From: a virus
Length of the DNA stretch: 10,020 bases
Direction: 5' to 3' (one strand)
IMG/VR virus record: IMGVR_UViG_3300010244_000056
Coordinates: 1-10,020 of that record
The position numbers and the translations under genes were made by a program. Under the pieces are notes generated by a model. It saw nothing but the letters and a program-made list of their open reading frames with translations, made no database searches and was not told the DNA's origin. Below are positions 1 to 10,020 of this stretch, in pieces. The number at the start of each line of letters is the position of its first letter. The stretch's first letter is position 1.

Positions 1-180
1 GGGATATCCGCACCCCCCCTCTCCGTTATCTCATTTCCCATAATATTCTCACAATTATTTTTTTCGATTCTAATTAGATTCAAAATTTTCTGTCATTAAA
101 TTTTTATTGAACCTATTTAATATTCTTAATAGAACCAACTATGAACAAATGGTAACCTAATAAATTAATTAAAAAACAAA
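1..180. repeat. Left inverted terminal repeat (180 bp)
   Basis: Reverse complement of 1-180 equals 9841-10020 at every position, compared in 10-nt blocks. The match breaks at 181 vs 9840. The end starts GGG, then palindrome GGATATCC (2-9) and a C7 run (13-19). Confidence 0.97.
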
Positions 181-192
181 TACCACAATCTA

Positions 193-221
193 TTGACAAT
201 GGAAATCCAATGGTGTAAGAT
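193..221 (+). promoter_or_regulatory. Candidate sigma70/sigmaA-type early promoter P1
   Basis: Consensus -35 TTGACA (193-198), a 17-nt spacer, then -10 TAAGAT (216-221, 4/6). It lies just inside the left ITR boundary and upstream of the first ORF. Confidence 0.5.
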
Positions 222-252
222 TGAGATATAAATTGAAAGCGAGGTGATGAAA

Positions 253-393
253 ATGATTGGAAAATGGTTAGCAATTAACATAAATGATGGTAGTTATGTT
301 AGGGCTGATGTTCAAATGACTTTGAAAAAGTTCCTTATTGAATCAGGTTTGACAAATGAGTTAGTAAAAAATTATAAGTTATTAAGTATTTAA
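253..393 (+). CDS. Small hypothetical early protein (46 aa; 48 aa if ATG 247 is used)
   Basis: Hand-translated ORF below the track size cutoff: MIGKWLAININDGSYVRADVQMTLKKFLIESGLTNELVKNYKLLSI, stop TAA 391-393. SD GAGGTG (241-246) is 6 nt before ATG 253. It is first downstream of P1. Confidence 0.4.
   Translation: MIGKWLAININDGSYVRADVQMTLKKFLIESGLTNELVKNYKLLSI
349..378 (+). promoter_or_regulatory. Candidate second sigma70/sigmaA-type promoter P2
   Basis: Consensus -35 TTGACA (349-354), an 18-nt spacer, then TATAAG (373-378, 5/6). It is positioned to drive the 422-772 gene and lies in the 3' end of the small ORF. Confidence 0.4.
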
Positions 394-421
394 ATTTTAA
401 CATATTAAAGGTGGTTTAAAC

Positions 422-772
422 ATGGGAATATTAAACAAGTATAATAAAAAACCGTTATTTGAATATGACAACAACAAAAAACGTGAGTTTGCGAAGTTGA
501 GGGATCTTGTTTCAATTGATGGTGTGGGTCAAAAAAATTATGTTGTTCATGCTTTGTTTATTAACAAAAAATCTAGGTTTGGTGAAGAGCCTATCATTGT
601 AACAGAAAATAATATGGTAAATGCACCTAGACATTTACTTGATACAGTTAAAGATATGAGGGAAGATGAAGAAGTTATAAACTTAATTAATAATAGAATG
701 GTCGCTTTTAAAATTTATAGCTATTCGGGTAAAAATGGTGATGGTTATTCAGTTGAATGGATTGAGTTATAA
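422..772 (+). CDS. Hypothetical early protein; tentative replication accessory DNA-binding protein (phi29 gp5 SSB / gp6 analogue)
   Basis: 116-aa ORF with SD AAAGGTGG 6-7 nt before the ATG. Its size, first large position in the early block and C-terminal pattern (MVAFKIYSYSGKNGDGYSVEWIEL) resemble my recollection of the phi29 gp5 C-terminus (FKVKVVQGTSSKGNVFFSLQLSL). The functional call is weak. Confidence 0.55.
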   Translation: MGILNKYNKKPLFEYDNNKKREFAKLRDLVSIDGVGQKNYVVHALFINKKSRFGEEPIIVTENNMVNAPRHLLDTVKDMREDEEVINLINNRMVAFKIYSYSGKNGDGYSVEWIEL

Positions 773-775
773 ATT

Positions 776-801
776 AGTTGGCGGTATAACCGCCAACTTT
801 T
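776..801 (+). terminator. Hairpin / weak intrinsic terminator after the 116-aa gene
   Basis: Perfect 9-bp stem AGTTGGCGG (776-784) / CCGCCAACT (790-798) with a 5-nt loop. Only a short TTT tract follows (799-801). Confidence 0.45.
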
Positions 802-817
802 AAGGGGGTGTGATAAA

Positions 818-1066
818 ATGCACGATACCATATTAAAAGAAGTTGGCATTTATTGTCGATTCTATCGAATGTACGAATTAAATATGACGCTTAGAGATGT
901 ACAAGGTAATGAAAAAATTAAATCATTATCAAGTTTTGAACATGGACATAGTAGCAATATTAAACACTTATTCAAATATTTAATTAAATGTGATAATGAT
1001 ACAGAACGTATTAATTTTTTAATTGGTCTTATAAGACATGTGAGGTCAAACATAAATTGGGAGTGA
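818..1066 (+). CDS. Putative XRE-family helix-turn-helix DNA-binding regulator
   Basis: 82-aa ORF with SD GGGGGTG (804-810). The segment VGIYCRFYRMYELNMTLRDVQGNEKIKSLSSFEHGHSSNIKHLFKYL fits the XRE/Cro-type HTH pattern (R..R...l.T..dv......lS.fE.G.......l.k). Motif-level recognition only. Confidence 0.5.
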   Translation: MHDTILKEVGIYCRFYRMYELNMTLRDVQGNEKIKSLSSFEHGHSSNIKHLFKYLIKCDNDTERINFLIGLIRHVRSNINWE

Positions 1067-1070
1067 TTTA

Positions 1071-1712
1071 ATGGTGAAGGGTATCAAACTAACAGACGAT
1101 CAACCAACCGTAACAAAAACAGTAAAAGAACAAAAAGAGAAAGCTATTCGTGAATATAGAAAAGAGGCTTCAAGGTTAGCAAGTAAAGCAAATAAACGTT
1201 TACAAAGATTAGAACGTAATAAGTTGCAAGATAGTCCAGCATACCAATCAGCTATTGATGGTGGTGAGGTACGCTTTGGTGTTCGTGGGAAAACTCATAA
1301 TGAACTACAATCTGAGGTATCTCGTATGACAAGGTTTTTAGAATCTGAGACATCAACTGTTAGAGGTGCTAACAGAATATTAAAAGAAATGGCAACAAAT
1401 ACAGGTATTAAATATAAAAATTTGAAGGACTTAAAAAAGAACGCAAAAAAATTCTTTGAGTTATCTAGTAAAGTTGAACAATATTTAAGAAACGTTGATG
1501 ATATGGCTTCAGCTATTGGATATGAGAAAATATGGGAGGCTGTTAATGAGTATGTTGAGGAAAATAAAGGTGACCTTTCTTCAAGTACCAACAATATTGA
1601 TAGTGCTGTCAAAAAAATATCTGATGCCATTAAAGAATATGACGATAAAGTTAAATTTGAACCATTAGATAGTGATTTTCCTGATGGTTGGTATAAACTA
1701 CCTAAGAAATGA
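1071..1712 (+). CDS. Candidate terminal protein (replication primer protein)
   Basis: 213-aa ORF immediately upstream of, and apparently coupled to, the protein-primed-type DNA polymerase, as for phi29 gp3/gp2. It has a highly basic N-terminal third (KEQKEKAIREYRKEASRLASKANKRLQRLERNK) and an acidic, Ser/Tyr-containing C-terminal part. SD GGGAGTGA precedes the ATG. The call rests on synteny and composition, not on a recognised motif. Confidence 0.5.
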   Translation: MVKGIKLTDDQPTVTKTVKEQKEKAIREYRKEASRLASKANKRLQRLERNKLQDSPAYQSAIDGGEVRFGVRGKTHNELQSEVSRMTRFLESETSTVRGANRILKEMATNTGIKYKNLKDLKKNAKKFFELSSKVEQYLRNVDDMASAIGYEKIWEAVNEYVEENKGDLSSSTNNIDSAVKKISDAIKEYDDKVKFEPLDSDFPDGWYKLPKK

Positions 1713-1721
1713 TGTGATTAG

Positions 1722-3827
1722 TTGCTTCATTTTAGAGAAAACACCATTAATGAATTATCTTTTCCAACCATTAAAACAAACAAAAAAATAACTTATTTGA
1801 ACACTGAATCAGCTTTTGACATTGAAACAACAAGTACTAAAATTCAGGGTGAAAAAACAGCCTTTATGTATATATGGATGTTTGGATTAGGATTTGGAAA
1901 TAATATTTATTATGGTAGAACATGGGATGATTTTTTAAATTTAATTAAACAATTACAAATCCATTTTAATTTGGGATATTATAAACGTTTGGTTGTCTAT
2001 GTTCATAATTTGGGATATGAGTTTCAATTTATGAGAAAATATTTCAAATGGGAAGAAGTATTTGCAGTTGGGGAAAGAAAACCAATTAAAGCTTTATGCG
2101 AAGAAGGGATTGAGTTCAGGGATAGCTACATTTTAAGTGGTTATTCACTAGGAAAAACAGCCGAAAATTTACAATATAATGAGGTGGAAAAACTGACAGG
2201 GGATTTGGATTATTCCCTAATAAGAACACCTGAAACAGTTATGCAACCACAAGAAATGGCTTATTGCCATAATGACATTGAAATTATACTGGCATATATT
2301 AATGAACAGATACACCAATATAAAGACATAACCAAAATACCACTAACAAACACAGGCAGGGTTAGAAAATATGTTCGTGATAACTGTTATTACACTAATT
2401 CTAACCATAGGAAAAGCAGTAAAGGGAAATACTACAAATACAGAAAATTAATGCAAGATCTGAAGTTGTCCGTCGAAGAATATAAAATGTTAAAACGTGC
2501 TTTTATGGGTGGATTTACACATGCTAATGCTAACCATACAGGTAAGGTTTTAAAAGACGTGTCAAGTATTGATTTTACATCATCATACCCTAGTGTTATG
2601 TTAGCTGAACAATATCCCATGAGTAAAGGGAAACAAATAGATGTTAATAGCATAGATGAACTTGAATATTATTGCCATAAATACTGCTTATTATTCAATA
2701 TACGTTTAACAAATGTTGAAAGCAGTATTTCACAAGAAAACTATATAAGTGAAAGTAAGTGTTTTGAGTTATCTAACCCTATTTTAAATAATGGGCGTGT
2801 GTATAGTGCTAGTTCATTGGCTATGACGATAACAAATGTTGATTTTGACATCATCAAACAATGTTATGATTGGGAAGATATTGAAGTATCCAACGTCATA
2901 CGTTATCATAAGGGTTACCTTCCAAAGTCAATTATATCAAGTATATTAGAACTTTATAAGGATAAGACCGTTTTAAAAGGTGTGGAAGGGTATGAAATTG
3001 AATATTTATTGTCAAAAGGTATGCTTAATAGCGTCTATGGTATGAGTGTAACAGATATAGTGAAAGACAACCATATTTATGATGATAATGAGGGGTGGGA
3101 AGTTGAACCTGTTACCATATCAGATGAAATTGAAAAATATAATGAAAGTAAAAACAGGTTTCTTTATTATCCGTGGGGTGTTTGGGTGACAGCCTATGCA
3201 AGAAAAAATCTCTGGACAGGTATTATAGCATTAGGGAATGATTATGTTTATAGTGATACTGATAGTATTAAAATGATTAATTATAGTGATAATGTTGATT
3301 ATATTGAATGGTATAATAAACAAACTATGAATAAATTAAACCGTATGTGTGATGTTATGAATATAGATAAATCATTACTTGAACCTAAAACAAAAGAGGG
3401 AACTAAAAAGCCTATTGGTGTTTGGGATTTCGAGGGTACTTATAAACGTTTTAAAACATTAGGTGCAAAAAGATATTTGGTACAAGAAAATGATGAACTT
3501 CATTTAACAATAGCAGGATTATCTAAACAAAATGGGATAGAATACATGAAAGAAAAAAGTGGGTTTAATTATGAGAAGGTGTTCGATATGTTTAATGATG
3601 AGTTATATATTCCTGCTGAACGCACAGGGAAAATGACACATACTTATATTGATAATGAACAACAATTCAGGATACAAGATTATCAGGGTAACGATAGTAA
3701 TATCACAACAAAAAGTAGTATCAACTTAGAACCTGCCGATTTTACATTATCAATATCAAGACAATATGGGCGTTTTTTACAATTCTTTTTAAAAGGTTAC
3801 CTATATAAAGGGGTGAACGAAATATGA
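1722..3827 (+). CDS. Family B DNA polymerase, protein-primed (phi29/Cp-1 type)
   Basis: All motifs occur in canonical order. ExoI AFDIETTS (D-I-E at 1818-1826), ExoII YVHNLGYEFQF (from 2004), ExoIII YCHND (2262-2276). Motif A DFTSSYP (2571-2591), motif B KGMLNSVYG (3015-3041), motif C YSDTDS (3249-3266), KxY GAKRY (3468-3476). Long inter-motif segments are compatible with TPR1/TPR2-type insertions. No in-frame ATG exists upstream of ExoI, so the start is TTG 1722. Confidence 0.95.
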   Translation: MLHFRENTINELSFPTIKTNKKITYLNTESAFDIETTSTKIQGEKTAFMYIWMFGLGFGNNIYYGRTWDDFLNLIKQLQIHFNLGYYKRLVVYVHNLGYEFQFMRKYFKWEEVFAVGERKPIKALCEEGIEFRDSYILSGYSLGKTAENLQYNEVEKLTGDLDYSLIRTPETVMQPQEMAYCHNDIEIILAYINEQIHQYKDITKIPLTNTGRVRKYVRDNCYYTNSNHRKSSKGKYYKYRKLMQDLKLSVEEYKMLKRAFMGGFTHANANHTGKVLKDVSSIDFTSSYPSVMLAEQYPMSKGKQIDVNSIDELEYYCHKYCLLFNIRLTNVESSISQENYISESKCFELSNPILNNGRVYSASSLAMTITNVDFDIIKQCYDWEDIEVSNVIRYHKGYLPKSIISSILELYKDKTVLKGVEGYEIEYLLSKGMLNSVYGMSVTDIVKDNHIYDDNEGWEVEPVTISDEIEKYNESKNRFLYYPWGVWVTAYARKNLWTGIIALGNDYVYSDTDSIKMINYSDNVDYIEWYNKQTMNKLNRMCDVMNIDKSLLEPKTKEGTKKPIGVWDFEGTYKRFKTLGAKRYLVQENDELHLTIAGLSKQNGIEYMKEKSGFNYEKVFDMFNDELYIPAERTGKMTHTYIDNEQQFRIQDYQGNDSNITTKSSINLEPADFTLSISRQYGRFLQFFLKGYLYKGVNEI

Positions 3828-4921
3828 GCGATGAAAAACAATTTTATAGTTTAAATCGAATAAAAAAGAAAAATGCGGTTTACAATGTTATATTTGGTGA
3901 ACGGTCAAACGGTAAAACATATGCTGTTTTGAAAGAAGGTTTACGGGTTTTCTGGAAAACAGGTGGTCAAATTGGAATCATAAGAAGATGGAAAGAAGAT
4001 ATTACAGGCAAACGAGCACAAGGAATTTTTAATGCTTTAAATGAAAACGATGAAATTTTGAAAATGACAGATGGGGTTTTTCAGGGAATACATTATTACA
4101 GTGGACGTTATTATTTATGTAATTACACTGAAGATGGTAAAGTTACTTATGAATATGAAAATTGTATAGGCTATGTGTTTGCTTTATCTGATAATGAACG
4201 CAATAAATCTATATCATTTCCTAACATTCAGACAATCTTATTTGATGAGTTCCTAACCAATCAAATATATTTACAAGATGAGTTTATTTTGTTTATGAAT
4301 ACAGTTTCAACAATTGTTAGACAACGAACCGATGTTAAAATATATATGCTAGGAAATACCGTCAATAAATATTGTCCGTATTTTAAAGAAATGGGGTTGC
4401 GACATATACACAAAATGCAAAAGGGGGATATTGATGTTTATAAATATGGAAATAGTAAATTAACGGTGGCAGTTGAGTATTGTAATTCAAGCACAAAAAA
4501 TAAGGAAAACAACTTTTATTTTGCCTTTGACAATCCAAAATTGGATATGATTACGGACGGTGCATGGGAATTAGATATGTATCCCCATATACCAACAAAA
4601 TACCAACCAAAAGACGTGTTAATGATATATTTCATTTTGTTTAATGAGTCCATCTACCAGTGTGAAGTTGTTCAACGAGAAAACATGACATTTACTTTTA
4701 TTCACCCTAAAACAACCCCGTTGAAAGATACTGAAAATGATCTTATATACACACTGGAATATATTCCTAAAATGAATTATAATAGGAATATATATAAACC
4801 TATAAACCAATTACAAGAAAGGTTATTATGGTATTTTAAAACAGATCGTGTGTTTTATTCAGATAATGAAACAGGAGAAGCTATTAATAATTATTTAAAA
4901 GTGTGTAAAGGTGGGGGATAA
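3824..4921 (+). CDS. DNA encapsidation (packaging) ATPase, phi29 gp16-like
   Basis: Walker A GERSNGKT (3896-3919) and Walker B ILFDE (4235-4249). The segments NVIFGERSNGKTYA, FPNIQTILFDEF and IYMLGNTVNKYCPYF parallel my recollection of phi29 gp16 (NFVIGARGIGKSYA, YPNVSTIVFDEF, ICLSNAVSVVNPYF). The start overlaps the polymerase stop (ATGA). SD GGGGTGA. Confidence 0.88.
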   Translation: MSDEKQFYSLNRIKKKNAVYNVIFGERSNGKTYAVLKEGLRVFWKTGGQIGIIRRWKEDITGKRAQGIFNALNENDEILKMTDGVFQGIHYYSGRYYLCNYTEDGKVTYEYENCIGYVFALSDNERNKSISFPNIQTILFDEFLTNQIYLQDEFILFMNTVSTIVRQRTDVKIYMLGNTVNKYCPYFKEMGLRHIHKMQKGDIDVYKYGNSKLTVAVEYCNSSTKNKENNFYFAFDNPKLDMITDGAWELDMYPHIPTKYQPKDVLMIYFILFNESIYQCEVVQRENMTFTFIHPKTTPLKDTENDLIYTLEYIPKMNYNRNIYKPINQLQERLLWYFKTDRVFYSDNETGEAINNYLKVCKGGG

Positions 4922-4922
4922 T

Positions 4923-5105
4923 ATGACAAATGAATTAGTTGATTTAATCGGTAACGTGGGGTTCCCCATTGTGATTTCATTGGTTTTATTTTATCAGCTT
5001 ATGAAAACAAAAGATATGATGATAGAATTTCAAAAAATCATAACTATGAATACAATGACGATTGAAAAATTAATACAAGAACTAGATGAGAAAAAAATGG
5101 AGTGA
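4923..5105 (+). CDS. Small membrane protein, YvrJ-family-like
   Basis: 60 aa from ATG 4923, with SD GGTGGGGG 5 nt upstream; the track's GTG 4911 is less likely. LIGNVGFPIVISLVLFYQL matches the conserved GFPI-containing transmembrane core I associate with the Firmicutes/phage YvrJ family. A charged helical tail follows. It is the only clear TM segment in the genome. Confidence 0.6.
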   Translation: MTNELVDLIGNVGFPIVISLVLFYQLMKTKDMMIEFQKIITMNTMTIEKLIQELDEKKME

Positions 5106-5110
5106 ATAAA

Positions 5111-6130
5111 GTGTATAATTATAAAGATAAAATAAAAAACATTCAACAACGAAATGATTATATGTTGGCTAGAACCCTTTCTATGTTTGAATATGAAAAC
5201 ATGCCTGATAGTATACCACCCCTAGAAGTTGAAAAGCAATTGCAAAAACAGGGATTCACCTTTATAACAGAAATTGAAGGTAAATTATATGCCCTGACAG
5301 GTGGTCTGGGAGGCTATCCTGATGTATACGGGAATCCTACACAAATAATTATTTCAAACCCTTATATAGAATATAATGCAACATTAGATATTAATAATGA
5401 TGGTGTTTTAATAATGAATGATGATATGATGAAAGGGTTAAATCCATTATTTGAACAATATAACACCCTATTAACCGAAAATGAGATATCTATGTATGTT
5501 AATTTATATAATACACGCATTCAAACACTAATCAGCGCAGGTGATGACGCAACTAGAGAAAGTGCTGAGAAATATCTTCAAAAAGTGCAGGAAGGTGAAC
5601 TAGGGGTTATAGGTGAAAATCAATTATTTGATGGCATAAGAGCACAGAACTCATCTGATAAATCAGACCTTACAAATCAATTAGTCGAATTTCATCAATA
5701 CATTAAGGCGTCATTATATAATGAAATTGGTCTTAATTCCAATTACAATATGAAAAGAGAGCGTTTAATTAGTGATGAAGTAAAAATGAATGACAGCTTA
5801 TATCCATTAATTCATAATATGCTTTCAAACAGGAAAAGAGGTATTGAAAAAGTGAATGCTATGTTTAATCACAATATAGATGTTATGTTTGGTTCTATTT
5901 GGAACATTAGAGATGTTGAACCTGAACCAGAACAAGTTGAACCTGAACCAGAACAAGTTGAACCTGAACCAGAACAAGTTGAACCTGAACCAGAACAAGT
6001 TGAACCTGAACCAGAACAAGTTGAACCTGAACCAGAACAAGTTGAACCTGAACCAACAGATGAAGAAATTTCAAACGCTTATGCTATTAATGAACAAAAA
6101 GATGATGAAGAAGGGCGTGATAATTCTTGA
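5111..6130 (+). CDS. Connector / portal (upper collar) protein, phi29 gp10-like, with C-terminal acidic tandem repeat
   Basis: FEYENMPDSIPPLEVEKQLQKQGF and NMKRERLISDEVKMND parallel my recollection of phi29 gp10 ([39 protein letters not shown]). The preferred start is GTG 5111 (SD GGAG 5099-5102, 8-nt spacing). The alternative GTG 5102 overlaps the upstream stop (GTGA). Confidence 0.85.
   Translation: MYNYKDKIKNIQQRNDYMLARTLSMFEYENMPDSIPPLEVEKQLQKQGFTFITEIEGKLYALTGGLGGYPDVYGNPTQIIISNPYIEYNATLDINNDGVLIMNDDMMKGLNPLFEQYNTLLTENEISMYVNLYNTRIQTLISAGDDATRESAEKYLQKVQEGELGVIGENQLFDGIRAQNSSDKSDLTNQLVEFHQYIKASLYNEIGLNSNYNMKRERLISDEVKMNDSLYPLIHNMLSNRKRGIEKVNAMFNHNIDVMFGSIWNIRDVEPEPEQVEPEPEQVEPEPEQVEPEPEQVEPEPEQVEPEPEQVEPEPTDEEISNAYAINEQKDDEEGRDNS
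5915..6055 (+). repeat. Perfect 21-bp tandem repeat, 6 full copies plus 15 nt (GTTGAACCTGAACCAGAACAA)
   Basis: Unit boundaries counted at 5915, 5936, 5957, 5978, 5999, 6020 and 6041, with no mismatch until 6056. It is in frame in the portal gene and encodes (VEPEPEQ)6-VEPEP. Confidence 0.97.
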
Positions 6131-6672
6131 TTTTAAGTGATTTTTTAGAGGGAAAAGAAAACTTATTCAATGTAATAAACACCAAAACAACCCTGCCATT
6201 TTTAAAAGAAAATGATACTGAAACGATTCTACTATCATATAAGTTAGAACATGGCAATTTAAAAGTACCTGAAAAGATAGAAAATTTGACTATTCCAGAA
6301 CTATCAGATATAATTATATTAAATTATGAGGATAAATGGGATAAACAGTATAAAATATTAAGTGAAGAAATTGTTCTGGGAGTTGATCGAAAAACAAAAA
6401 CTGATATTACAGGGACTGATGATACAAACAAAAAAACAAAAACAGATAAAACCAACAAAATAAGTGCCTATAATAGCAATGAATTAATAACAGATGATGG
6501 GTCTGATAGTAATTCAACCGATGATACAAATACAAACACAACAAAAAATAGTGAAAAAACAGAAAAAAGTTTTGAGGGTATGAAAGAACAACTGAAATTG
6601 TTTGATTATAGTTTCTTAAAAAACCATGTTTTTAGAGATGTTAATCATATTTTAACTTTACAAATTTATTAA
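6127..6672 (+). CDS. Hypothetical structural protein; candidate lower collar / tail-tube connector (scaffold role not excluded)
   Basis: 181-aa ORF with no in-frame ATG near the 5' end. TTG 6127 overlaps the portal stop (TTGA). It directly follows the connector gene, as gp11 follows gp10 in phi29. It has helical-looking N- and C-terminal parts around a 60-aa polar Thr/Asp/Asn/Lys-rich core (nt 6388-6567). No motif recognised. Confidence 0.4.
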   Translation: MILSDFLEGKENLFNVINTKTTLPFLKENDTETILLSYKLEHGNLKVPEKIENLTIPELSDIIILNYEDKWDKQYKILSEEIVLGVDRKTKTDITGTDDTNKKTKTDKTNKISAYNSNELITDDGSDSNSTDDTNTNTTKNSEKTEKSFEGMKEQLKLFDYSFLKNHVFRDVNHILTLQIY

Positions 6673-6685
6673 GGAGTTGTTAAGA

Positions 6686-7855
6686 ATGAAAGTTAAACAA
6701 TTACGACAATTAGTCAATCAGGCAACACAAGAAGTTCTAGGTGAAGAAGGTGTTATCAACGAAGATCTTTCAAACGTTGTTGATGTGGGGAAGAAAATTG
6801 AAAATGCAGACAGCGTTGATAATTATGTGAAAAAGTTGGTTAATCATATTGGTAAAGTGACATTCCAAAATAGATCATATGCGGGTGGTGCGCCATCTGT
6901 ATTAATTGATAGTTGGGAATATGGCTCAATCCTTGAAAAAGTGAGCACAGAACTACCTGAAGCCAATGAAAATGAAACATATAAATTGACTGATGGGGCT
7001 GAATATTCCCCTGATATTTTCTATCAACCAAAAATTAGTACACAATTTTTCAACAGTAAAGTGACATTTGAAATTCCATTATCTTTTACAGAAAACCAAA
7101 TTAAAGAAAGTTTTTCAAGTGGCAATCAATTGAACGGTTTTGTTTCAATGCTAACAACAAGTGTTGAAAACTCATTCACTGTTAAACTTGATAATCTAAT
7201 CATGAGAACTATCAATAATATGATTGGTGAAACACTTAATGATGATGTTTCAAGTGATTTTACAAAAACAGGTGTTAAAGCGGTCAATCTTATTAGATTA
7301 TATAATGATGAATATGATACAAGTATTACAAAAGAAACCGCATTATCTAACCCCGACTTTATTCGTTATGCAACTTATATTATTGGTTTGTATAGTGATC
7401 GCATGAAAAAGATTTCAACCTTGTTCAATATTGGTGGTAAAGAAAAATTTACACCTGAAGAGCATCTTAACACAGTTTTATTGTCCGACTTTGAAAAAGC
7501 TAGTAATGTTTTCTTAAAAGCTGATCTGGAAAACAGCAATCAAATCACATTGCCTACTCATGAAACAGTTCCATATTGGCAAGGAAGCGGTAAAGATTAT
7601 AGTTTTAAATCTGTATCTAGCATTGATGTTAAAACTTCAAGTAAAAACAAAGTTGCAACCGATGGTATTTTAGGTGTTATGTTTGATCGTGAAGCTATTG
7701 GGGTTTCCAATCTTGATCGTAGAGTGACAACTAACTTCAATCCAAAAGCAGAATTTTATACGAATTTTTACAAATTTGAAGCAGGTTATTTCAATGATAA
7801 AAATGAAAATTTTGTCGTTTTCTTCTTAGGTGATGAAGCAGGTACTGAGTCTTAA
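6686..7855 (+). CDS. Putative major capsid protein
   Basis: 389 aa from ATG 6686, preceded by the best SD in the genome (AAGGAG 6671-6676, 9-nt spacing); TTG 6677 in the track is too close to the SD. It is followed by an intrinsic terminator, lies between the portal block and the tail gene, and has a size typical of small-podovirus capsid proteins. The fold cannot be judged by eye. Confidence 0.7.
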   Translation: MKVKQLRQLVNQATQEVLGEEGVINEDLSNVVDVGKKIENADSVDNYVKKLVNHIGKVTFQNRSYAGGAPSVLIDSWEYGSILEKVSTELPEANENETYKLTDGAEYSPDIFYQPKISTQFFNSKVTFEIPLSFTENQIKESFSSGNQLNGFVSMLTTSVENSFTVKLDNLIMRTINNMIGETLNDDVSSDFTKTGVKAVNLIRLYNDEYDTSITKETALSNPDFIRYATYIIGLYSDRMKKISTLFNIGGKEKFTPEEHLNTVLLSDFEKASNVFLKADLENSNQITLPTHETVPYWQGSGKDYSFKSVSSIDVKTSSKNKVATDGILGVMFDREAIGVSNLDRRVTTNFNPKAEFYTNFYKFEAGYFNDKNENFVVFFLGDEAGTES

Positions 7856-7860
7856 TGAAT

Positions 7861-7891
7861 GCGGTGCGGGTAACCACATCGCTTATTTTTT
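7861..7891 (+). terminator. Intrinsic terminator downstream of capsid gene
   Basis: Stem GCGGTGCGG (7861-7869) / CCACATCGC (7874-7882): 9 positions with one G-U and one mismatch, loop GTAA. TTATTTTTT follows (7883-7891). Confidence 0.6.
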
Positions 7892-7899
7892 GAGGTGTT

Positions 7900-8355
7900 A
7901 TGATGGAAATTGTTTTGTATGAAACAATGGATAATGATGATGTTTTAAATAAATCAAAAACAGAACAATATAGATTTAACATTCAATTGAAAAGTGAAAC
8001 CGACATACAAGAACCTAATATTAAATTGAGTGATGAGGGGTTAATGAATTTTAAACGATGTAATTATTGTTATATTGAAGATTTGCAACGTTATTATTTC
8101 ATTCGACGTGTTGAAAACATTAATAGTCAAATATGGTCTTTAGACCTAAAATGTGATGTTATTGAAACATATAAAAATGACATATTAAATAGTTATGCTA
8201 ATGTTTATAGAGGTATTAAAAAAGGTGATTATATGGAAATTAGTTCAGATTTTGAAACCAAAAAAACTTATGAAAAATTTGACAGTAATAAATCATTCAA
8301 TAACGTTGAAAATGTCATCATATTATCAACTTTAGGTGGTGGGGACAATAAGTAA
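7900..8355 (+). CDS. Tail knob protein, N-terminal part (phi29 gp9 N-domain-like)
   Basis: SD GAGGTG precedes the ATG. NYCYIEDLQRYYFIRRVENINSQIWSLDLKCDVIETYKNDI (8062-8184) parallels my recollection of the phi29 gp9 N-domain ([46 protein letters not shown]). VIILSTLGG resembles gp9 FLVIISKSIMHG. The ORF ends 20 nt inside the next ORF. Confidence 0.7.
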   Translation: MMEIVLYETMDNDDVLNKSKTEQYRFNIQLKSETDIQEPNIKLSDEGLMNFKRCNYCYIEDLQRYYFIRRVENINSQIWSLDLKCDVIETYKNDILNSYANVYRGIKKGDYMEISSDFETKKTYEKFDSNKSFNNVENVIILSTLGGGDNK

Positions 8356-9817
8356 TTTTCATGTAAAAGATGACGGTTTAAAAGTGACAACGGTTATATA
8401 TGAGGACGGTATTAAAAGAGAAACAAAAGTATATGCTATTAAAGGTGATAAAGATTATTACGTTGATACGATAGGTGATTTTTCCAACGTTAAATGGGAA
8501 ATGACCGTTAGACCAACTTACAGGGGTGAGTTTCTTGTTCCTGGAACTATAAGGCTTAAACATGACGACGGGTCATTATCTGGCAATGACGAGTACTTCA
8601 TTGTTGATGATGATTTTCAGGGTACAAATACCATTGTTCGTGAAAACTTGGAATCAGAAGATGACATTACAATTATGGGTGATGTATCATCAACAAAACC
8701 TGTTCCACCAGTTGACAATGTTAAAGTTTCATTTAATGATGTGAATGAACGTGGGGCAGAATTAAAAATAGTTGATGGATCTGAGACAATTAAAACCATC
8801 ACTGATTATGGGGACTATGATGTACCATCTAAAGATAACCAAACCTATGATCTACACATTGAACTTGTTGATAATACAGACTCATTTAAGGAAACACCTT
8901 ATTATATTTTAGATGGTATAAAAACAGATTTTACTATGAAAAACAGTGCTGAAACAAACCCTGTCACCTTATCATTTAATGGAATTGACAATGAGAAAAT
9001 TGAAATATATGGGCGTGTATCATCATCTGGTGATAATGGGGGTGGTGATGGTGGTGAAACTTCAGGTTTTAATCACATATATAAAGTCACAAAAGATGAT
9101 TTGAATGAGCTATCTAAAGAGCGTTTTGAGGTTGTAACAGCAGATTTTTCTGCCGACCTTATCGACTTAGGACAGAACATACTTAATGTCATGAAGATCC
9201 CATTTTCAGTTGATGATTTTCTGGGTGGTAATAATAAGATTGTTTTAGGTAATAAAACAACAAAAGTCACAGCACCTGAAATAACAAGTGATTTATTAGA
9301 AGTTGATCTAGGGTCTATTAAAGTCACTGAAAAATTTGGAAACTTATTTGATTATATGAATACAACCACAACTATTTACCTTCCATATATTGAAGAGATG
9401 GAATTGGACAAGTCATATGTTATTGGTGAAACTATATATATTAAATATGTGATTGATCTTTATTCAGGTGATGTTACAGTGAATATAACCAATACAAAAA
9501 ATGAACAAGTGAAGTCTAAAACAACAACAATTGGTAGACAAATACCATTTATACAAGAACAAGAACACACACAAATGTTTAGCGAATATTCAGGTAACAC
9601 ATTTTTCAATGGTATCTATCACGCATACATCATAGTTAGTAGAAATGAGCCTGTTAATATTGATAATGATATGAATCCTTACATATCTGACTATGGACAG
9701 TTAAAAAATTTCACAAGCCGTATTGTGGTTGATAATGTGGACTTGAAAACAAACGCGACATTACAAGAAAAACAGGAAATAATTAGCATATTAGAAGAAG
9801 GTTTGAATATAAATTGA
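8336..9817 (+). CDS. Tail knob protein, C-terminal part (phi29 gp9-like) with an N-proximal beta-rich insertion; start uncertain, possibly expressed as a fusion with 7900-8355
   Basis: TIYLPYIEEMELD (from 9371), GNTFFNGIYHAYIIVS (from 9593) and the C-terminal NATLQEKQEIISILEEGLNIN parallel my recollection of gp9 (MMYPYCVTEITD; GNTAFDYGNGYRGVYVIK; DINNNDLQEIRTIFDNGITLW). There is no ATG and no SD upstream of GTG 8336/8339. The frame opens right after TAG 8333-8335. Confidence 0.7.
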   Translation: MVGTISNFHVKDDGLKVTTVIYEDGIKRETKVYAIKGDKDYYVDTIGDFSNVKWEMTVRPTYRGEFLVPGTIRLKHDDGSLSGNDEYFIVDDDFQGTNTIVRENLESEDDITIMGDVSSTKPVPPVDNVKVSFNDVNERGAELKIVDGSETIKTITDYGDYDVPSKDNQTYDLHIELVDNTDSFKETPYYILDGIKTDFTMKNSAETNPVTLSFNGIDNEKIEIYGRVSSSGDNGGGDGGETSGFNHIYKVTKDDLNELSKERFEVVTADFSADLIDLGQNILNVMKIPFSVDDFLGGNNKIVLGNKTTKVTAPEITSDLLEVDLGSIKVTEKFGNLFDYMNTTTTIYLPYIEEMELDKSYVIGETIYIKYVIDLYSGDVTVNITNTKNEQVKSKTTTIGRQIPFIQEQEHTQMFSEYSGNTFFNGIYHAYIIVSRNEPVNIDNDMNPYISDYGQLKNFTSRIVVDNVDLKTNATLQEKQEIISILEEGLNIN

Positions 9818-9850
9818 AGTAGTGCTAAGGTACTACTTCTTTTGTTTTTT
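9817..9850 (+). terminator. Intrinsic terminator after the last gene
   Basis: Stem AAGTAGTGC (9817-9825) / GTACTACTT (9830-9838): 9 bp including one G-U, loop TAAG. CTTTTGTTTTTT follows (9839-9850). Confidence 0.7.
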
Positions 9851-10020
9851 AATTAATTTATTAGGTTACCATTTGTTCATAGTTGGTTCTATTAAGAATA
9901 TTAAATAGGTTCAATAAAAATTTAATGACAGAAAATTTTGAATCTAATTAGAATCGAAAAAAATAATTGTGAGAATATTATGGGAAATGAGATAACGGAG
10001 AGGGGGGGTGCGGATATCCC
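9841..10020. repeat. Right inverted terminal repeat (180 bp)
   Basis: Exact reverse complement of 1-180. Its inner edge (9841-9850, TTTGTTTTTT) doubles as the U-tract of the last terminator. Confidence 0.97.

Follow-up and report, generated by a model that had tools for sequence, protein, structure and literature searches.

Phi29-related phages are regarded as the smallest known tailed viruses (review, PMC11476376), and Luque et al. have discussed metagenomic candidates of smaller size (PMC7762592; 10.1101/2025.06.18.659913). The hallmark set of these phi29-like phages consists of p2, p8, p9, p10, p11 and p16 (PMC11476376). Evseev et al. (2024) set out a group of them that infects Gram-negative hosts; its members have a split tail knob and a short lower collar, carry no fibre genes and have genomes of 11-14 kb, and one of their proteins is named as a counterpart of phi29 p3 (PMC11476376). 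The isolates in this Astrithrvirus-related group measured 11.15-11.9 kb, Vibrio phage K58 g2 being smaller at 10,290 bp. We analyzed a 10,020-nucleotide stretch of viral DNA, positions 1 to 10,020 of the IMG/VR record IMGVR_UViG_3300010244_000056 (the whole of this stretch is called the window here), and found that it is very probably the complete linear genome of an uncultivated phi29-like podophage with protein-primed replication, belonging to the clade of Astrithrvirus, Phanie, DU_PP_III and K58 g2. The window has a GC content of 30.5% with a GC skew that is positive nearly throughout, and it contains about 12 genes, every long open reading frame (ORF) lying on the plus strand. The coding density was 93.9% overall and 97.4% outside the inverted terminal repeats (ITRs), and a tRNA scan of the window found none.

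The evidence for completeness comes mainly from the two ends. The features at and beside them, together with the internal repeat on which the exact length depends, are:

1..180, no strand: left ITR, terminus GGGATATCCGCACCCCCCCTCTCC, presumed origin of protein-primed replication
193..221, plus strand: putative early promoter of the sigma-70 type, TTGACA-17-TAAGAT (10/12 match), just inside the left ITR
5915..6055, plus strand: tandem array of a 21-nt unit that encodes VEPEPEQ, 6.7 perfect copies, within the connector gene (TRF score 282)
9816..9839, plus strand: hairpin terminator, 10-bp stem followed by the T-run that opens the right ITR
9841..10020, no strand: right ITR, complementary to 1-180

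We found that the arms at 1-180 and 9841-10020 form an inverted repeat of 180 nt that is 100% complementary and flush with both ends, and a script re-check agreed. A perfect, flush repeat of this length cannot be a product of chance. The first-pass annotation had read the window as a whole phi29-type replicon bounded by perfect 180-bp ITRs, and both parts of that reading were borne out, the second by the agreement of the termini with those of isolated relatives. The terminal motif GGGATATCCGCACCCCCCC recurs at both termini of two isolates, Acinetobacter phage Phanie (terminus GGGTTATCCGCCCCCC, ITR of 171 nt) and Vibrio phage K58 g2 (terminus GGGCTATCCTCCCCCC, ITR of 183 nt). Among about 200 related contigs, which we denote by L numbers, L166 was the sole other one to reach the terminal motif, at one end only. 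The early promoter has counterparts as well, since in L115, L006 and Phanie an alignment placed a CTATTG(A/C)CA -35 box and a TAnnAT -10 box 5' of the first conserved gene. At the other end, the terminator takes up the 23 nt that separate the stop codon of the last gene from the right ITR. We also noted that ITR length varies widely in the clade, from about 795 nt in L023 (1-795) and 445-460 nt in L018 (1-445) through the 180 nt of the window to 18 nt in the astrithr record.

The genome is represented a second time in JGI metagenome 3300020217, by a contig of 9,936 nt (Ga0212156_100483). The ITRs and ends of this contig are identical to those of the window, from which it differs by four fewer 21-nt repeat units and by two mismatches in the first 5,971 nt. 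Because the two assemblies differ in repeat units, the exact genome length is either 9,936 or 10,020 bp, as set by the copy number of the 21-nt repeat. The VEPEPEQ array spans 5915-5971 in the JGI contig, four units fewer, with 3 units against 7; since the array is about as long as what we take to be a typical short read, the difference may be one of assembly or a true polymorphism. We considered whether the window could be an artefact or a defective variant of a true genome of about 11 kb that has a lysin or right-arm genes, with the right ITR mis-joined in assembly or the contig derived from a deletion mutant. The 11,095-nt contig L006, which has a lysin exactly where the window has 23 nt, and the two ways in which the connector repeat array was assembled would both fit this explanation. 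However, the two contigs of the genome end identically, their end motif is that of the isolate genomes, and a clean terminator lies between the last gene and the ITR. Moreover, L115, L197 and L198, which come from other studies, have the same architecture with no detected endolysin, and tblastn detected no lysin remnant of any type in the window. We therefore consider such an origin highly improbable. Because a second contig has identical ends, the terminal motif is shared with isolates, and a promoter and a terminator adjoin the ITRs, the ends appear genuine and a chimeric or truncated contig is unlikely, as judged from the assemblies and the shared end motifs.

The predicted genes, all on the plus strand, are:

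253..393, plus strand: short leader ORF of 46 aa, or 49 aa if read from the GTG at 244, with a GAGGTG ribosome-binding site 7 nt upstream
422..772, plus strand: single-stranded DNA-binding protein (SSB) of picovirus type, 116 aa, called from an AlphaFold2 (AF2) model and a Foldseek match
818..1066, plus strand: 82-aa early protein, probable helix-turn-helix (HTH) DNA-binding regulator, homolog of astrithr gp01 and Phanie gp01
1071..1712, plus strand: terminal protein (TP) candidate, 213 aa, helical, directly upstream of the polymerase gene
1722..3827, plus strand: protein-primed family B DNA polymerase (PolB), 701 aa (PF03175, 5e-11; phrog_1907, 5e-88)
3824..4921, plus strand: gp16-type DNA encapsidation ATPase, 365 aa (PF05894, 6e-17, above the curated cutoff; phrog_2150, 1e-28)
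4923..5105, plus strand: holin-like small membrane protein, 60 aa (64 aa from the GTG at 4911; phrog_4898 holin, 8e-8)
5102 or 5111..6130, plus strand: connector or upper collar, gp10 type (PF05352, 3e-14; phrog_2038, 7e-41)
6127..6672, plus strand: 181-aa structural protein, candidate lower collar or scaffold, homolog of astrithr gp07, Phanie gp07 and K58 gp04
6677 or 6686..7855, plus strand: major capsid protein (MCP), Phi29_MCP family, 389 aa (PF25622, 3e-53, profile positions 2-323 of 323)
7903..8355, plus strand: tail knob, N-terminal part, a separate protein of 150-151 aa (family profile match to the C1 and Andhra knobs)
8339..9817, plus strand: tail knob, C-terminal part, 492-493 aa, with residues ~245-492 homologous to gp10 of relatives

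Counterparts of the hallmarks p2, p8, p9, p10 and p16 were all found in the window, and for p11, the lower collar or tail tube, the 181-aa protein is the sole candidate. The first-pass annotation had listed the set expected of a small protein-primed podovirus; PolB, the gp16 ATPase, the connector and the capsid protein were confirmed by profiles, but the knob, which it had taken for a single gp9-type gene, turned out to be split over two genes. PolB aligned with the phi29 DNA polymerase (1xhx, E 1e-9), including the region of the YCDTDS motif, and was 56-61% identical to polymerases of the Astrithrvirus group. The ATPase was likewise 56-61% identical to those of relatives. The MCP was 59-62% identical to isolates and 74% to L006 and L115, with the next group at 31% or less. 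The TP candidate was 43-59% identical to the gene 5' of PolB in astrithr, Phanie and K58 g2, and its place upstream of PolB is kept in 16 genomes. By homology, the window encodes machinery for protein-primed replication, a packaging motor of gp16 ATPase and connector, a capsid of the Phi29 type and a knob in two parts. An Rfam scan for prohead RNA (pRNA) gave no match at E up to 5; this RNA is known only from phi29 and close Bacillus phages and does not define the wider group (PMC11476376).

The N-terminal knob part was recognised through its family profile, which matched residues 49-152 of the C1 knob (4eo2_A, E 1.3e-4) and the Andhra knob (8egs, E 1.5e-3), that is, the N-terminal region of these knob proteins. 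It is also a homolog of Phanie gp9, which is annotated in its record as a putative tail knob protein. In the C-terminal part only the last ~250 aa are homologous to gp10 of astrithr, Phanie and K58 g2 (26-33% identity, E 1e-19 to 1e-35), and its N-terminal half of about 240 aa is beta-rich and lineage-specific. The assignment of this part to the knob comes from its homology to gp10 of Phanie and astrithr and from the published models of those proteins. Its family profile found no usable match among PDB sequences, no enzyme domain was detected in the 493-aa protein in Pfam or PHROGs, and a family-wide PHROG scan gave no consistent family. An AF2 model of the 493-aa protein was unusable (pLDDT 47.6, 9 usable homologs), and the Foldseek PDB results obtained with it were meaningless. 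As for the 181-aa protein, it was ~27% identical to astrithr gp07, Phanie gp07 and K58 gp04 (E ~1e-11); it had no Pfam, PHROG or PDB match even with its family profile, and a PHROG scan of all family members showed no consistent family.

The 116-aa protein at 422-772 had no sequence-based annotation. Its AF2 model, for which 74 homologs were supplied, had a pLDDT of 92 and a pTM of 0.82, and its best Foldseek match in BFVD was the SSB of Staphylococcus phage JBug18 (E 1.7e-12, TMq 0.85, 38% identity), a phi29-like phage whose SSB is an annotated one. Because of this match we called the protein a predicted SSB of picovirus type, although the model gave no significant match in the PDB. The SSB family had 163 members, all from metagenome contigs of up to about 14 kb. 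In other genomes the gene lies at the right end on the minus strand (L010 9866-10177, L015 9726-10037, L119 9745-10029, L135 9165-9515 and L122 9331-9687), so that in both layouts, left and plus in the window, right and minus elsewhere, it is close to an end of the genome and points towards the interior. The astrithr gp13 family, which has the matching terminal position in isolates, was tried as kin of the SSB family and rejected, since hhalign showed no relation; the two families are at most analogous. The 82-aa protein matched astrithr gp01 and Phanie gp01 with E values of 2e-8 to 3e-10, and weak XRE-type HTH Pfam matches in 2-3 of 12 family members suggest that it is probably an HTH DNA-binding regulator. 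The family profiles of the TP candidate, the SSB and the 82-aa protein found no usable match among PDB sequences. The 46-aa ORF is the first gene after the promoter and was also called as a gene in the JGI contig, and it had no homolog in any locus or library searched. L006 and L115 have short ORFs at its position that are unrelated to it.

We next placed the genome among its relatives. A megablast search with the complete sequence found no nucleotide-level match among 50,697 phage records. The nearest protein records were those of astrithr, Astrid, assan, DU_PP_III, Entb_47, Phanie, Shigella and Salmonella isolates and K58 g2. PolB and MCP identity was 56-62% to the Astrithrvirus group and 35% or less to Amedibacillus phages, a Clostridium phage and gut phages. 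A tree built from MCP and PolB joined the window with L006, L115 and L195, as sister to a clade holding all the isolates, and MCP identity, the split knob and this tree placement agree in assigning it to the Astrithrvirus-related clade (MCP cluster 23 of PMC11476376). The product of blastn identity and coverage was 48% or less to any retrieved genome, and the isolates were not among the top scores. A viral genus is delimited by the International Committee on Taxonomy of Viruses at about 70% nucleotide identity. The window lies outside the genus Astrithrvirus, for which at least 70% nucleotide identity to astrithr is required, with an amino-acid identity of ~58-61%. These comparisons suggest that it represents a new lineage of roughly genus level inside the described Astrithrvirus-related clade.

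The first-pass annotation had also supposed that a genome of this size lies at a new lower limit for tailed double-stranded DNA phages and may define a minimal gene set. Neither supposition was supported in that form. The annotation had taken Mycoplasma phage P1 as the smallest tailed phage and missed the Astrithrvirus-related group with its 11.15-11.9 kb isolates, and among the hundreds of relatives in public metagenomes there are endolysin-less contigs of 9.4-10.0 kb built in the same way. The record of Vibrio phage K58 g2 (OZ195715) gave 10,290 bp after removal of the 100 N that join its ends, and its real genome is linear with 183-nt ITRs. As deposited, this record (L002 7031-7494) is a permuted pseudo-circle in which the 100 N bridge the true ends and the PolB gene is interrupted at the end of the record; literature searches on K58 g2 and on the source samples of the window found nothing. 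The window is shorter than K58 g2 by 270 bp, or by 354 bp if the 9,936-nt contig is taken. Its MCP family is very common: the matches listed included more than 530 metagenome contigs, and there were 110 contigs in GTDB assemblies, nearly all metagenome-assembled genomes (MAGs), many of them of 10-13.9 kb; the relatives' contigs with flush inverted ends ranged from 9.4 to 13.6 kb. L115 (ENA UOOI01004376), from a fermentation metagenome, has 9,373 nt at 77x coverage and 11 genes in the window's architecture; its ends are repeat stubs of 55-58 nt, and we estimate its real length at ~9.7 kb. Similar architectures were found in L198 (9,979 nt), whose left end is common to three sequencing runs, and in L197 (9,987 nt). 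The window thus falls at the bottom of a size range that was already known and is continuous, with no break from it, and its size record is marginal. For the capsid, a published model assigns T=3 heads to 8.1-17.1 kb (PMC7762592), and the T=3 head suggested by the first-pass annotation is plausible.

The small size is explained by missing genes, as the window is shorter than the isolates because it has no endolysin and none of the leftward right-arm genes. In the isolates, the knob gene is followed by an endolysin and then by two to four leftward-transcribed genes at the right end. When we searched the window by tblastn with both types of endolysin and with the right-arm genes of isolates, no match was obtained, and Pfam and PHROGs detected no lysin, tail-lysin, fibre or appendage domain in any window ORF. 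In place of the 23 nt of the window, the closest ITR-bounded relative, L006, has the gene for an M15 peptidase of 225 aa with CW_7-like repeats. The lysin is patchy even in the window's own subclade, being present as the M15 type in L006 and L195 and absent from the window and L115. No endolysin gene was detected in L018, L023, L135, L122, L115, L197 and L198. L115, L197 and L198 have the same one-strand gene order as the window, and L018 and L023 share the core order. The endolysin-less architecture is therefore real and recurrent, and since the endolysin is missing in several lineages, its loss is recurrent and tolerated. By sequence comparison the gene appears dispensable, gained and lost among close relatives. 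In L198 we noted, besides the YvrJ-like membrane protein, a second ORF of 94 aa at 5758-6042 that by eye resembles a holin-like transmembrane protein of Gram-positive phages.

A gene set with no lysin, tail lysin or fibre may not be self-sufficient. Phanie was reported to depend on a helper, using the contractile tail of the myophage Aci01-1 (Pourcel et al. 2024, as cited in section 2.6 of PMC11476376). The window might similarly be a helper-dependent, satellite-like podophage, with replication and packaging of its own and a co-infecting larger phage for adsorption, penetration and probably lysis. If the helper supplied lysis, the endolysin would be dispensable. We hold this reading tentatively, as possible and short of probable. 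Phanie, the relative reported as helper-dependent, has the same split knob and no fibre genes; the window is devoid of endolysin, tail lysin and fibre genes; the gain and loss of lysin in the subclade is as expected of a dispensable gene; and the name 'K58 g2' may signal a second genome in one lysate. On the other hand, no helper has been identified, and most relatives, Phanie included, keep an endolysin, so that helper dependence does not predict its loss.

An autonomous, minimal lytic phage could also explain the missing lysin. In that case the holin-like protein would collapse the membrane potential, and the wall would be opened either by autolysins of the host or by a lytic activity that escaped recognition; such an activity might reside in the N-terminal half of the 493-aa protein, in the 181-aa protein or in the 46-aa ORF. 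The 60-aa membrane protein, a homolog of astrithr gp05 with a partial YvrJ match and one hydrophobic helix at about residues 5-27, is conserved; several independent lineages with no detected endolysin persist at good coverage (L115 at 77x); and about 420 aa of the proteome have no assigned function. Autolysin-assisted release is known from pneumococcal phages, and the lysin of L006 suggests Gram-positive hosts, in which such release is known. However, searches with Pfam, PHROGs and PDB profiles turned up no lytic domain, and a podovirus of Gram-positive hosts with neither a tail lysin nor receptor-binding appendages would be unusual. We rate an autonomous life cycle of this kind as rather unlikely.

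The lysins of the subclade also bear on the host. The catalytic domain of the L006 lysin (10201-10878) was 62-67% identical to L-Ala-D-Glu peptidases of Bacillus and Listeria phages, and the L195 lysin (9282-9833) consists of an M15 L-Ala-D-Glu peptidase followed by CW_7 repeats, for which Pfam CW_7 was confirmed on L195. Because the L006 lysin resembles those of Bacillus and Listeria phages, there are hints that the window's subclade may infect Gram-positive Bacillota, unlike the isolated relatives. These enzymes also argue against a wall-less, Mollicutes-like host with the standard code, in which neither an endolysin nor a tail lysin would be needed, as is presumed for Mycoplasma phage P1. 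Mycoplasma phage P1 is resembled by the window in its one-strand genes and its lack of a lysin, the GC content is 30%, and the relative L063 was binned with a Tenericutes MAG. Nevertheless, TGA ends six of the 12 genes and TAA the other six; therefore the standard bacterial code applies, and code 4 (Mycoplasma), and with it a code 4 host, was rejected. In addition, the sisters L006 and L195 carry peptidoglycan hydrolases with wall-binding CW_7 repeats, and the MAG binning of these contigs is clearly unreliable. A wall-less host is very unlikely on this evidence. Host inference from MAG binning was rejected altogether, as relatives fell into bins of many phyla and of an archaeon. The 110 MCP relatives (L035-L114 among them) occurred in bins of Omnitrophota, Bacteroidales, Clostridia, Spirochaetia, Melainabacteria and Methanobrevibacter, most of them as whole contigs of ~10-14 kb. 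This placement looks like a systematic mis-binning of small phage genomes.

Taking up again the reading of a complete phi29-like genome whose entry and lysis come from outside, we propose the following course of infection. A promoter just inside the left ITR would drive all genes rightward, and transcription would stop at the terminator abutting the right ITR. The small ORF, the SSB, the HTH-like protein, the TP and PolB would replicate the DNA from both ends, with the TP priming on the conserved 3'-CCC...ATAGG terminus, where the GGG reiteration might permit sliding-back as known for phi29. The gp16 ATPase would package unit-length DNA via the connector into a small capsid of the Phi29-type MCP, probably with T=3 geometry, and the tail would be a minimal knob of two proteins. 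Entry and lysis would rely on something outside the genome, a helper phage being the leading guess. The connector of this motor has an acidic C-terminal tail (5870-6130 in the window) of low-complexity or repeat-rich sequence, and such a tail was present in 20 of 20 relatives examined, with lengths of 45-246 aa and 22-41% D+E; in K58 g2 it contains EP repeats, in L195 EPTD repeats. The phi29 connector suggests, by analogy, that the tail may be located within the capsid. One contig, L196, ends inside a connector-tail repeat.

Several points weigh against this picture. The genome is known from sequence alone, and its ends at positions 1 and 10020 are those of assembled contigs. The TP candidate had no detectable sequence similarity to the phi29 TP, and its call derives from position and from homology to unstudied proteins. 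Helper dependence has been shown for one relative only, Phanie, as cited in the section of PMC11476376 named above. A novel lysin could hide in the 181-aa protein or in the N-terminal half of the 493-aa protein, neither of which has an assigned function. With these points in mind, we regard it as a speculative and somewhat unlikely extension that the whole ~10-kb one-strand lineage (the window, L115, L197 and L198) consists of obligate helper-dependent podophages, possibly of Gram-positive hosts, with 11-12 genes for copying, packaging, the head and a docking knob. If true, these would be the smallest tailed-virus genomes that replicate and package themselves, and the lifestyle of Phanie would have a second and wider example.

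The window adds a genome with both true ends to a clade that already held the smallest known tailed phages, and the smallest genome with verified ends drops from 10,290 to ~10,000 bp. The clade abounds in metagenomes of gut, rumen and fermenter origin, and some of its members probably infect Gram-positive hosts, despite a description specific to Gram-negative ones. With 11-12 genes, known ends and an early promoter, the genome is compact enough to be rebooted from synthetic DNA and used in experiments on helper dependence, and its capsid, possibly an isometric T=3 shell of HK97 fold, would be a suitable cryo-EM target. The missing endolysin gene and the possible helper dependence are worth following more than the size.

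Compared with known systems, the window is closest to the metagenome contigs L006 (IMGVR_UViG_3300020227_000065), L115 and L195 (ERZ15185448 NODE_790, 9,936 nt). These have an identical one-strand order from the SSB gene onward and 68-74% amino-acid identity in PolB and MCP, but a blastn identity-times-coverage of only 43-48%, and all three stop short of the true termini. Astrithrvirus astrithr (the Salmonella phages astrithr, Astrid and assan; 11.6-11.7 kb) and its unclassified relatives, Pectobacterium DU_PP_III, Enterobacter Entb_47, Shigella vB_SHGBLB0004 and Salmonella S.Kent 1-2-1 (11.15-11.16 kb for the Shigella and Salmonella isolates), share with the window the order HTH-like protein, TP, PolB, ATPase, membrane protein, connector, ~180-aa protein, MCP, ~150-aa knob N-part and knob C-part, with 56-62% amino-acid identity in PolB, ATPase and MCP, and astrithr has an acidic connector tail like the window's. 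The astrithr group differs in having the endolysin gp11 and three to four leftward right-arm genes (gp12-15), in an ITR of 18 nt as recorded against 180 nt, and in a GC content of 40% against 30%; the window has an unrelated SSB at its left end and is 1.1-1.9 kb shorter. Acinetobacter phage Aci01-2-Phanie (OX458330, 11,885 bp) has nearly the same terminus, a matching promoter box, the split knob and no fibre genes, with 58% identity in TP and 61% in PolB; it differs in that its knob C-part is 854 aa long and contains six Ig-like domains (PMC11476376), and in that it encodes a lysin of 204 aa and carries two right-arm genes. K58 g2, the smallest deposited relative, resembles the window in ITR length, core genes (56-59% amino-acid identity) and GC content (32%), and it differs in having an endolysin, four right-arm genes and a shorter knob C-part of 386 aa. 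Phi29 itself (Salasmaviridae, 19.3 kb) is set apart by ITRs of 6 bp, the pRNA, a scaffold, head fibres, the appendages gp12, the tail lysin gp13, the endolysin gp15 and genes on both strands (PMC11476376), and no counterparts of its pRNA, scaffold, head fibres, gp12, gp13 or gp15 were found in the window. What phi29 and the window have in common is a protein-primed PolB, the gp16 ATPase, the connector, the MCP family, the knob fold and a linear, ITR-ended DNA.

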